Shown one piece after another: positions 18,099-21,171 of a stretch of DNA of 21,171 nucleotides. The DNA comes from Escherichia coli (lineage in GTDB: Bacteria; Pseudomonadota; Gammaproteobacteria; Enterobacterales; Enterobacteriaceae), in NCBI RefSeq assembly GCF_003334355.1, contig NZ_QOWP01000047.1; one strand, 5' to 3'. Position 1 is the stretch's first letter; the number at the start of each line of letters is the position of its first letter. The notes under the pieces were generated by a model. It saw only the letters and a list, made by a program, of their open reading frames with translations. It did not search any database and had not been told where the DNA came from. Both the position numbers and the translations under genes were made by a program.

Positions 18099-19052
18099 TT
18101 AACCTATCTCCTGTAACGCGTGTCTCTGGCGTTCGACGATATTGGTCCACAAATTGTCTTTATCGTCAGTCCATAAATTAATCAGCAAGGCAAAAAAGCG
18201 TTCTGCTGCTGGAGAAAGTACGGCATCTTTACGGCGAATTATTCCCAATGTTCGACGTATAACGGGTTCCACCAATGGGATACCAATAATCGAAGAATAG
18301 GGCGCATGAGGCATTGCCAGGCCAGGAAGCGCCGAAATCCCCAGTCCCGCCTCCACCAGTCCTAATGACGTCGAAAGATGACGCACTTCGTAAAACCAGT
18401 CCAGCTTCCAGGGCTTGTCGGCCAGCTGTTGTTCTATCAACAGTCGGTTGCCGCTGGAGGAGCGTACGCCAATCATTTTGTAACCCACTAACTCCTGCCA
18501 TTCTACAAGCTGCTTTTTGGCCAATGGATGGTCACGCCGACAGGCCAGCACGAACGGCTCGTTGACCAGTGGGGTAAAATCAATGGATGAATTTGTGACG
18601 TTGTTCATGTTTATGCCAAAGTCTGATTCGTTACACAGCACCGATTCCATGCAATTATTCGTGCCTTGTTCCAGAATCCGCACTTTAATATTGGGATACA
18701 GCTCATTAAATTTACCGATTGCCAGCGGTAAAAAATAAAATACTGCGGTCGGAATACACGCTAACGTCACCATACCACGATGATAAGCATTCATATCACG
18801 AATATTAAAAAGCGTTTCATCGAATTTCTTTATTAATTCCCGCGCCTCCGGGAGCAACCTTTTTCCTGCTTTTGTTAACGTAACCTTGCGAGTTGTACGC
18901 TCAAATAGTTGAATATGTAAATCTTCCTCCATCTTTTTTATTCTTCGCGTTAATGCAGGTTGCGTAATATTGAGTAATTTAGCGGCATTGTTAAACGAAC
19001 TGGACTCTGCCAGTATGACAAATGCCTTCATACTTGATAATTCATGCTTCAT
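18099..19052 (-). CDS. ybhD: LysR-family transcriptional regulator (uncharacterised)
   Basis: 317 aa starting MKHELSSMKAFVILAESSSFNNAAKLLNITQPALTRRIKKME (LysR HTH); GGAG ribosome-binding site upstream of the ATG at 19052. The ORF track extends 21 codons further (19115) with no support. Confidence 0.9.
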   Translation of the reverse strand: MKHELSSMKAFVILAESSSFNNAAKLLNITQPALTRRIKKMEEDLHIQLFERTTRKVTLTKAGKRLLPEARELIKKFDETLFNIRDMNAYHRGMVTLACIPTAVFYFLPLAIGKFNELYPNIKVRILEQGTNNCMESVLCNESDFGINMNNVTNSSIDFTPLVNEPFVLACRRDHPLAKKQLVEWQELVGYKMIGVRSSSGNRLLIEQQLADKPWKLDWFYEVRHLSTSLGLVEAGLGISALPGLAMPHAPYSSIIGIPLVEPVIRRTLGIIRRKDAVLSPAAERFFALLINLWTDDKDNLWTNIVERQRHALQEIG

Positions 19053-19235
19053 TATTACTCCGGAAAATGGAAGCGACGATTTTGGGTGGCTGGCCGTTAA
19101 AAATTTTAACTGCATTTAGCCAACTTAAATTAATGAAAAAATGTTATTAATCGTTGAGCTAAAGTCATTAGAGATGCTTTGCCCTTAATGTAACCATATC
19201 GCAATAAGTTATGTTTTTAAATTGAGGGCATTATT

Positions 19236-20288
19236 ATGAAAAAAATACCCTGCGTGATGATGCGAGGTGGAACCTCGAGGGGCGCGTTCCTGTTAGCGGA
19301 ACATTTACCCGAAGATCAAACGCAGCGCGATAAAATATTGATGGCAATTATGGGTTCCGGTAACGATCTGGAAATTGACGGTATTGGCGGCGGTAATCCA
19401 CTGACCAGTAAAGTCGCCATTATTAGCCGTTCCAGCGATCCGCGTGCTGATGTCGATTATCTGTTTGCGCAGGTAATCGTTCATGAGCAACGTGTCGATA
19501 CCACGCCTAACTGCGGCAATATGCTGTCTGGTGTTGGGGCATTCGCCATTGAAAATGGTTTGATTGCAGCGACTTCGCCAGTTACTCGCGTACGTATCCG
19601 CAACGTCAATACGGGTACGTTCATCGAAGCTGATGTGCAAACGCCAAATGGTGTTGTCGAGTACGAGGGTAGCGCCAGAATTGACGGCGTACCGGGTACT
19701 GCCGCACCGGTTGCGCTCACTTTCCTGAATGCCGCTGGAACCAAAACCGGAAAAGTTTTCCCGACTGATAATCAGATTGATTATTTTGACGATGTCCCGG
19801 TGACCTGTATCGATATGGCGATGCCAGTCGTCATTATTCCGGCTGAATATCTGGGAAAAACAGGTTATGAATTACCGGCGGAACTGGATGCCGACAAAGC
19901 ATTATTAGCCCGCATTGAATCTATCCGTCTACAAGCGGGTAAAGCAATGGGCTTAGGTGATGTCAGTAATATGGTTATCCCTAAACCTGTGCTTATTTCT
20001 CCAGCGCAGAAAGGCGGGGCAATTAATGTGCGTTATTTTATGCCGCATTCTTGCCATCGCGCGCTGGCGATAACCGGTGCTATTGCTATTTCCAGTAGTT
20101 GTGCATTGGAAGGCACCGTCACCCGACAAATCGTCCTTTCTGTAGGATACGGCAATATCAATATTGAACACCCCAGTGGTGCGCTCGACGTTCATTTAAG
20201 TAATGAAGGTCAGGATGCCACGACGTTACGCGCATCTGTTATTCGGACGACCAGAAAAATATTTTCCGGTGAAGTTTATCTTCCCTGA
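19236..20288 (+). CDS. ybhH: PrpF / methylaconitate-isomerase-like putative isomerase (diaminopimelate-epimerase fold)
   Basis: 350 aa ORF; GAGGG ribosome-binding site; contains a TPNCGNM motif reminiscent of the catalytic Cys region of the PrpF/DapF-like fold; recognised as E. coli YbhH. Confidence 0.9.
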   Translation: MKKIPCVMMRGGTSRGAFLLAEHLPEDQTQRDKILMAIMGSGNDLEIDGIGGGNPLTSKVAIISRSSDPRADVDYLFAQVIVHEQRVDTTPNCGNMLSGVGAFAIENGLIAATSPVTRVRIRNVNTGTFIEADVQTPNGVVEYEGSARIDGVPGTAAPVALTFLNAAGTKTGKVFPTDNQIDYFDDVPVTCIDMAMPVVIIPAEYLGKTGYELPAELDADKALLARIESIRLQAGKAMGLGDVSNMVIPKPVLISPAQKGGAINVRYFMPHSCHRALAITGAIAISSSCALEGTVTRQIVLSVGYGNINIEHPSGALDVHLSNEGQDATTLRASVIRTTRKIFSGEVYLP

Positions 20289-20327
20289 AAAAATTCGTTG
20301 TCAGGATAAGGACAATCAATAAAGGAC

Positions 20328-20348
20328 TTCTGTATGAGTCATACAGAA
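20328..20348. promoter_or_regulatory. 21-bp perfect palindrome between ybhH and ybhI
   Basis: TTCTGTATGA-G-TCATACAGAA; the two 10-nt arms are exact reverse complements; 16 bp upstream of the ybhI ATG. Confidence 0.5.
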
Positions 20349-20363
20349 AGAACAGGATTTTAA

Positions 20364-21098
20364 ATGAATAAGAAATCGTTATGGAAGCTAATTCTGATAT
20401 TAGCGATCCCATGTATTATTGGCTTTATGCCAGCTCCGGCAGGATTAAGCGAACTGGCGTGGGTGCTTTTTGGTATTTACCTGGCGGCCATTGTGGGGCT
20501 GGTTATCAAGCCTTTCCCGGAACCTGTCGTACTGTTAATTGCCGTTGCTGCCTCAATGGTGGTGGTCGGTAACTTATCCGACGGTGCGTTTAAAACCACC
20601 GCCGTATTAAGCGGTTACTCTTCAGGTACCACCTGGCTGGTGTTCTCGGCGTTTACCTTAAGCGCCGCATTTGTGACCACCGGTTTAGGTAAACGTATTG
20701 CCTATCTGCTGATTGGTAAAATCGGTAACACCACGCTGGGTCTGGGTTACGTTACGGTATTCCTCGATCTGGTACTGGCTCCGGCAACACCGTCTAACAC
20801 CGCGCGTGCGGGCGGCATTGTGTTACCGATCATCAACAGCGTGGCGGTGGCTTTGGGGTCCGAACCGGAAAAAAGTCCGCGTCGTGTCGGACATTACCTG
20901 ATGATGTCCATTTACATGGTCACCAAAACCACCAGCTATATGTTCTTTACCGCAATGGCGGGGAACATTCTGGCGCTGAAAATGATCAACGACATTCTGC
21001 ACCTGCAAATTAGCTGGGGTGGATGGGCGCTGGCAGCCGGATTGCCGGGCATCATTATGCTGCTGGTCACCCCGCTGGTGATTTACACCATGTACTGA
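20364..21098 (+). pseudogene. ybhI: DASS-family (divalent anion:Na+ symporter-type) transporter YbhI, N-terminal 244 codons only, interrupted by an IS10 insertion
   Basis: The hydrophobic multi-helix translation is recognised as the N-terminal half of YbhI (about 477 aa in reference K-12 as I recall). The reading frame ends ...VIYTMY-TGA, where the TGA is supplied by the first bases of the IS10 terminus (CTGATGAATCCCC). Confidence 0.85.
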
Positions 21099-21171
21099 TG
21101 AATCCCCTAATGATTTTTATCAAAATCATTAAGTTAAGGTAGATACACATCTTGTCATATGATCAAATGGT
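21095..21171 (+). mobile_element. Terminus (outside end) of IS10 / Tn10-type insertion sequence, partial, running off the window
   Basis: CTGATGAATCCCCTAATGATTTTTATCAAAATCATTAAGTTAAGGTAGATACACATCTTGTCATATGATCAAATGG is recognised as the IS10 terminal inverted repeat and adjacent transposase-promoter region, including an IHF-like site (TATCAAAATCATTA) and the Dam GATC site at 21161-21164. The transposase ATG would lie about 30 bp past the window end. Confidence 0.8.

Follow-up and report, generated by a model that had tools for sequence, protein, structure and literature searches.

The spacer between ybhH and ybhI of Escherichia coli contains a perfect 21-bp palindrome that is real, single-copy and unchanged in nearly all E. 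coli, and which probably serves to control the ybhI transporter. The palindrome is not the product of chance, and its two arms are shown to be under strong purifying selection. As read from the aligned sequences, the conserved unit is TCTGTAY-N5-RTACAGA, in which arms of 6-7 nt surround a free 5-nt centre. This is a selectively maintained and previously undescribed cis-element. It is of a commonplace type, whether operator-like palindrome or hairpin at a ribosome-binding region, and it challenges no existing concept. With regard to how the element works, the reading that is ranked first, and only tentatively favoured, is that of a candidate operator for a homodimeric DNA-binding protein that gates read-through into ybhI. 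Ranked second is a hairpin that acts within the ybhH-ybhI mRNA.

The window, by which is meant the whole 21,171-nt stretch of DNA analysed, is K-12-like E. coli sequence with 99.9% identity to K-12 strains across positions 19100-21094. Its gene order is nadA, the gal and mod operons, pgl, ybhD on the minus strand and then ybhH and ybhI on the plus strand. The ybhD-ybhHIJ cluster, one of the E. coli metabolic clusters that are still to be characterised, codes for a LysR-type repressor, a PrpF-type isomerase, a DASS-family transporter and an aconitase-family hydratase. Homology to K-12 ends at 21094, and positions 21095-21171 are the outside end of an IS10 (ISVsa5-type) element, CTGATGAATCCCCTAATGATTTTTATCAAAATCATTAAG, which interrupts ybhI after codon 244; the source strain therefore has an IS10/Tn10 insertion in ybhI. 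The features of the ybhH-ybhI region are listed in Table 1, and the RefSeq annotation marks nothing at the palindrome.

Table 1. Features in and around the ybhH-ybhI spacer (positions are those of the window).
Feature	Position	Strand	Description
ybhH	19236-20288	+	PrpF-family isomerase, annotated as 4-oxalomesaconate tautomerase; upstream cistron
Weak inverted repeat TTGTC-N8-GACAA	20298-20315	+	Predicted hairpin in the part of the spacer that is polymorphic; arms differ between E. coli alleles
Perfect 21-bp palindrome TTCTGTATGA-G-TCATACAGAA (= TTCTGTATGAGTCATACAGAA)	20328-20348	.	Exact 10-nt arms around a central G
Left arm TCTGTAT (consensus TCTGTAY)	20329-20335	.	The 14 outer arm positions are unchanged in 8 Escherichia alleles/species
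Mini-ORF MSHTERTGF, 9 codons	20334-20363	+	ATG in the 5' arm; TAA abuts the ybhI ATG; in frame with ybhI
Centre GAGTC (N5 of the consensus)	20336-20340	.	Differs in Escherichia SCPM, E1V33 and MOD1, E. albertii and Citrobacter
Right arm ATACAGA (consensus RTACAGA)	20341-20347	.	Conserved; the exception is Citrobacter sp. MGH106 (TACGGA), in which the centre is 1 base shorter
ybhI Shine-Dalgarno CAGGA	20353-20357	+	5 nt after the palindrome; (nearly) invariant in 15 orthologues
ybhI	20364-21094	+	DASS-family anion permease; first 244 codons, followed by the IS10 end at 21095

Inspection of the bases bears out the description in an earlier note, made from the letters of the window, of a perfect palindrome with 10-nt arms and a central G, and the distances given there, 40 from the ybhH stop and 16 from the ybhI start, are correct when counted to the first base. 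Thus 39 nt lie between the ybhH stop TGA (20286-20288) and the palindrome and 15 nt between the palindrome and the ybhI ATG (20364), so that it occupies the region 16-36 bp upstream of the ybhI start. In 300 dinucleotide-preserving shuffles of the window, the mean number of perfect inverted repeats (arms of 10 nt or more, spacer of 0-5 nt) was 0.17, as against the 3 that are present. Besides the palindrome these comprise a terminator at 289 and a repeat within the IS10 end at 21108. The placement of the palindrome within a 75-nt intergenic spacer makes a chance origin still less likely.

The conservation of the element within E. coli is close to complete. A 30-mer comprising the palindrome and the following 9 nt (20328-20357) was found in 5334 of 5426 complete E. 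coli genomes and is identical in 5315 of these, while the neighbouring upstream 30-mer (20292-20321) is identical in only 3450 genomes, has 2-6 mismatches in about 1560 and is too diverged to give a match in about 290. In BLAST searches the palindrome-bearing 30-mer occupied a median of 1 place per genome and a maximum of 2, and the search for further copies, which had been proposed as a route to a regulon, returned no second near-identical copy in any E. coli genome. Four divergent E. coli alleles carry 2-8 substitutions in the 39 nt upstream of the palindrome and none in the palindrome itself. One rearrangement of the locus was noted: in E. coli O157:H7 Z1833 (locus ~1190-2500) an IS1203 element of the IS3 family has inserted precisely where the palindrome begins on its left side, duplicating a TTC target, and splits the palindrome and ybhI off from ybhH.

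The same arms are found beyond E. coli. Species-representative genomes were scanned with YbhH, with every close orthologue being returned, and synteny of ybhD-ybhH-ybhI was observed in Escherichia, eight Citrobacter species, Edwardsiella hoshinae, two Klebsiella species and two others. The motif CTGTA-N7-TACAG is present at the same position in all six Escherichia loci, in C. youngae and in Citrobacter sp. On2M, and Citrobacter sp. MGH106 has the version CTGTA-N6-TACGG; the motif is not found at the orthologous loci of the C. gillenii group, C. sedlakii, Klebsiella or Edwardsiella. C. youngae and Citrobacter sp. On2M carry both arms in identical form, with the remainder of the spacer being unalignable between Escherichia and Citrobacter, and the arm spacing is constant in 7 of the 8 motif-bearing lineages. 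When 8 Escherichia alleles or species were compared with K-12 as the reference, the 14 arm positions contained no changed cells out of 112, the 7-nt centre 7 out of 56, the upstream 39 nt 42 out of 312 and the downstream 15 nt 11 out of 120. Since the centre varies, arms that are perfect over 10 nt are confined to E. coli and E. whittamii. The earlier note held that an absence of the palindrome from orthologous spacers would count against its proposal; the element is instead near-invariant in E. coli, and its arms are kept in other Escherichia species and in three Citrobacter species. What does not carry over between lineages is the perfect 21-bp form, which is lineage-specific. In Klebsiella grimontii the spacer has a different interrupted palindrome, GTGAA-TACGT-TTCAC, about 45 nt before the ybhI start, and K. 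michiganensis has a degenerate version of it.

As an operator, the element would be a cis-regulatory interrupted palindrome, TCTGTAY-N5-RTACAGA, that has been extended to a perfect 10-1-10 form in E. coli and E. whittamii, and the protein that binds it would be a homodimer other than YbhD or LexA. The site lies inside the ybhH-ybhI transcription unit without a promoter of its own. No sigma-70-like promoter was detected upstream of the palindrome on the plus strand, where the best relaxed matches reach 7 of 12, and an internal ybhI promoter was accordingly rejected. The centre of the palindrome is only 26 bp before the ybhI ATG, which excludes an activator site for ybhI, and with no promoter at the site a bound protein would act as a roadblock or gate on RNA polymerase arriving from ybhH. 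Such a gate would allow the cell to set the expression of ybhI apart from that of the enzyme gene ybhH. The binding of a protein, the identity of that protein and the roadblock mechanism are what we infer from these patterns.

A number of observations favour an operator. One is the pattern of constraint: the palindrome-bearing 30-mer is far more invariant than its upstream neighbour, the arm cells of Escherichia are unchanged while the centre and the segments on either side change, and the arms remain intact across genera in C. youngae and On2M, where the rest of the spacer cannot be aligned. It is the sequence of the arms that is conserved and not merely their pairing, as no compensatory change was seen at any of the 7 consensus pairs, with a covariation term near zero. 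Only one or two G.U variants occur and shuffle controls are not exceeded, with the qualification that invariant pairs are uninformative on structure either way. At position 7 in both arms a T/C switch takes place independently of the partner base, and at the RNA level this gives C.A mismatches in Escherichia MOD1 and On2M. The minimum-free-energy fold of the spacer does not contain the hairpin in C. youngae or On2M, and the arms are nevertheless kept. The spacing of the arms, fixed in 7 of the 8 lineages, is a further point in favour of an operator.

Against an operator, the lack of an upstream plus-strand sigma-70-like promoter means that the element is not in a classical operator position, and neither a second copy nor a related pair of half-sites was found in the ybhD-ybhH promoter region or across the 7-kb loci. 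A metagenome scan for TTCTGTAY-N5-RTACAGAA gave at least 120 loci, and wherever a listed match corresponds to E. coli DNA it is the ybhH-ybhI spacer, so that no second strict E. coli site was seen among them. The 32 distinct other listed loci with 44-60% G+C, when concatenated, gave no megablast match in E. coli. A second strict site in E. coli would be sampled about as often as the first, and hence such a site is probably absent; the chance expectation for strict sites is about 0.02 per 5 Mb. The scan also returned a family of 11 listed loci on metagenome contigs (66-73% G+C), unrelated to E. coli, with longer palindromes of the form ...TCCCnGAA-TTCTGTACAGsCTGTACAGAA-TTCnGGGA..., four copies of which are on one 242-kb contig (Ga0315899_10000020); in appearance this is a palindromic repeat dispersed in the genome of some high-G+C organism or phage. 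In the literature searched, in full text, there is no mention of the palindrome sequence or the motif, no transcription factor with such a motif and, for ybhH, ybhI and ybhD, no data on a cis-element. In ChIP-exo site tables covering about 40 uncharacterised E. coli regulators, neither ybhH nor ybhI is ever given as the nearest gene. Finally, Citrobacter sp. MGH106 has lost one base of the centre and carries an A-to-G change in the right arm, both of which should harm a rigid dimer site and which together preserve a 7-bp RNA stem through a U.G pair, and the hairpin is thermodynamically real in Escherichia mRNAs.

The closest parallels to an operator in this position are the roadblock operators, such as the PurR box in purB, gal OI, lac O2 and the intra-operon CcpA cre. 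These likewise are dimer-type palindromes found downstream of a promoter and within a transcription unit, where a bound protein only blocks elongation or loops to another site. They differ in that their proteins are known and that a second operator at the promoter usually accompanies them; neither a protein nor a partner site was found for the ybhI element. If the element is an operator then it points to a second input into transporter expression. A more specific, and doubtful, candidate version of this idea is that a hitherto unrecognised Escherichia/Citrobacter regulator reads LexA-like half-sites at a non-LexA spacing (CTGT-N9-ACAG) at a single intra-operon operator, and in so doing uncouples YbhI, a tricarboxylate/dicarboxylate-type transporter, from the isomerase YbhH. 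Were this to be the case, the element would be a dedicated roadblock switch with what is apparently a one-site regulon.

The reading placed second, which we regard as possible though by no means secure, is that the element acts as RNA. Here a hairpin of 7-10 bp, depending on the species, would form in the ybhH-ybhI mRNA and end 5 nt before the Shine-Dalgarno sequence, and would thereby, as a possible part of the same reading, set the 5' boundary of the ybhI ribosome-binding region. In this model the stem hides the 5' arm sequence UUCUG(U), which is otherwise able to pair with the Shine-Dalgarno CAGGA, and it may also shield the processed 5' end of ybhI or the 3' end of ybhH from nucleases; the outcome would be a fixed transporter:enzyme ratio. 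The predicted hairpin has 8 pairs in isolation and 9 in its mRNA context, with a 3-nt loop, a dG of -8.4 kcal/mol and a z of -4.1. The earlier suggestion of a stable RNA hairpin is therefore supported by prediction as far as stability is concerned (dG -8.4 kcal/mol), although not in the geometry of full 10-nt arms around a 1-nt loop, which is impossible and gives way to the 3-nt loop.

This stability in isolation is one of several points that speak for the RNA. The hairpin is present, in context, in the centroid structures of all Escherichia sequences, and all 8 motif-bearing orthologues have predicted hairpins of -4.5 to -7.5 kcal/mol. The 7-bp stem of MGH106 survives both the 1-nt loop deletion and the A-to-G change, the latter as a U.G pair, and the innermost pair, G-C in K-12, is U-A in E. 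albertii. A constant 5 nt separates the stem from the Shine-Dalgarno, while the linker sequence varies. When the 3' arm is scrambled in silico, the 5' arm pairs with the Shine-Dalgarno, whose probability of being unpaired drops from 0.44 to 0.12 and is restored, to 0.48, by a compensatory double swap. That the element is inside an operon transcript, with no nearby promoter, also accords with a role in the mRNA. If this is how it functions, it would represent a compact case of within-operon stoichiometry control.

Weighing against the RNA is the fact that the six core pairs are without covariation, even though each could drift via a G.U intermediate, and that pair 7 tolerates C.A mismatches. 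In C. youngae and Citrobacter sp. On2M the arms are kept while the marginal hairpin is left out of the minimum-free-energy fold, and the orthologues of C. gillenii, C. sedlakii, Klebsiella and Edwardsiella manage without the element. Rfam contains no matching family, and a scan of 19000-20700 with the Rfam 15 covariance models gave chance-level matches only, with E-values of at least 0.2 and scores far under the gathering thresholds. No ybhH or ybhI end appears in the Term-seq 3'-end tables consulted, an absence that carries little weight because laboratory conditions keep the operon repressed. Known intercistronic hairpins, including the malE-malF REP, the papB-papA processing site and the iscR-iscS structure, resemble the element in that a stable stem-loop without a U-tract is found between cistrons, with an enzyme gene upstream and a membrane-protein gene downstream. 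The ybhI element is, in contrast, single-copy, non-REP and short in the stem (7-10 bp), it is located at the downstream ribosome-binding region, and its sequence is conserved rather than its pairing. Intercistronic processing was one of the roles proposed earlier for the hairpin; processing of the RNase III type is implausible and an RNase III site was rejected, as at most 9 bp form in comparison to the ~20 bp, or two helical turns, that are required.

An improbable alternative is that the element has no function of its own and that its invariance reflects a general constraint on the ybhI translation-initiation region, or a low local mutation rate, with the palindrome being a historical accident. 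Within E. coli the loop and the linker to the ATG are indeed as invariant as the arms, and several Citrobacter species that retain ybhH and ybhI have lost the element. Between species, however, it is specifically the arms that are kept while the centre, linker and upstream spacer change; the left arm is 29-35 nt upstream of the start codon, beyond the normal ribosome footprint, and the perfect 10-1-10 class (spacer 0-5 nt) carries the low expectation of 0.17 per window given above.

A role as a secondary site for YbhD, the LysR-type repressor from the neighbouring gene, is very unlikely. LysR-type boxes have short arms and a 7-bp gap, a geometry that resembles TGTA-N7-TACA, and the arm and gap geometry of the palindrome is to that extent LysR-box-like. 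Viewed alongside LysR boxes of the T-N11-A and ATAC-N7-GTAT types, the element shares the short half-sites 7 bp apart and a location beside a LysR-regulated operon, and differs in its symmetric register, which is G-N11-C and not T-N11-A, as well as from the YbhD-family box of the divergent promoter region. The gene ybhH is strongly up-regulated in a ybhD deletion (PMC9068703), and Table 6 of the same paper gives two predicted YbhD sites for 'ybhH, ybhI', with no sequences. In ChIP-exo under a single growth condition, glucose M9, there is only one YbhD site and this is at yihQ (PMC8464067 supplement). The YbhD candidate was rejected by phylogenetic footprinting of 70 ybhD-ybhH spacers. The conserved footprint in this divergent spacer consists of ATTAAT-N11-ATTAAT (19129-19151) followed by GTCATTAG (19164-19171), and in Pseudomonas and alphaproteobacterial orthologues of GCAAT-N13-ATTGC plus TGCATTGGA. 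Judged on its conservation in sequence, the footprint is likely to be the YbhD-family operator, for which it is a candidate, and neither the E. coli box nor that of the distant orthologues is like the palindrome. Moreover, C. gillenii, Klebsiella and Edwardsiella retain both ybhD and the box, with the palindrome being absent. The YbhD box aside, the palindrome is the most strongly constrained non-coding sequence of the locus. The ybhD-ybhH spacer also contains a second perfect odd palindrome, GTTAAAA-A-TTTTAAC (19096-19110; T-N11-A type), which is present in K-12 and some other Escherichia, with variants elsewhere in the genus, and not in Citrobacter.

Least credible of all is an identity as a LexA (SOS) box or as a lux box of the LuxR (SdiA) type. 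The half-sites CTGTAT...ATACAG, which are those of LexA and of the lux box, are present at 20330-20346, and without the central G the site would be a good SOS box of 20 bp. The resemblance to the LexA SOS box (TACTGTATATATATACAGTA; core CTGT-N8-ACAG) extends to the palindromic form, the CTGTAT/ATACAG half-sites, the AT-rich variable centre and a length of about 20 bp. The element is, on the other hand, an odd 21-bp palindrome whose spacer, CTGT-N9-ACAG, is 1 base over the core CTGT-N8-ACAG (CTG-N10-CAG) of both families, and this spacing is conserved in 7 lineages. An 8-bp CTGT/ACAG spacer occurs only in Citrobacter sp. MGH106, where it is accompanied by a mismatch in CAG. The element is also away from any promoter and has no known SOS link, and ybhI is not known to belong to the SOS genes.

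Other identities were discarded. A REP/BIME or other dispersed repeat was rejected on account of the single copy in E. coli. The motifs of CRP, NikR (GTATGA-N16-TCATAC) and HexR-like proteins (TGTAAT-N3-ATTACA), which along with those of LexA and the lux box served for comparison, were rejected because they have the wrong spacing or place their matching bases in the non-conserved centre. On the plus strand the element is not a terminator, as the earlier note had concluded, given that its stem contains 3 G-C pairs and that the bases after it are AGAACAGG, with no U-tract. Whether as operator or as hairpin, the palindrome offers a precise 21-bp mutagenesis target for working out the function of the cluster.

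Some minor features overlap or adjoin the palindrome. The mini-ORF of Table 1, which has an AAGGA (20322-20326) 7 nt upstream, is probably incidental. Its ATG is missing in Escherichia MOD1, E. albertii and Citrobacter, the mini-ORF is restricted to the E. coli clade and close relatives, and the peptide exists as the variants MSHTERTGF, MNNTESSGF and MSNTESSGY. It has no entry in one small-ORF ribosome-profiling table. A regulatory uORF or leader peptide was accordingly rejected, since the ATG is not kept, the peptide is variable and the table lacks it. A 57-codon antisense ORF (20239-20412, minus strand) was set aside as it looks like low-complexity noise. In a terminator scan of the minus strand, positions 20349-20327 were flagged as weakly terminator-like with the tail TCCTTTATTG, which has 5 T in 8, and no minus-strand gene ends there. 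The minus strand also contains the -10-like hexamer TAAAAT at 20362-20357, which together with TCCATA at 17 bp scores 8 of 12. It is a weak promoter candidate that is not conserved in Citrobacter, and an antisense RNA from it would start at the right edge of the palindrome and continue through the hairpin and a T-rich tail.
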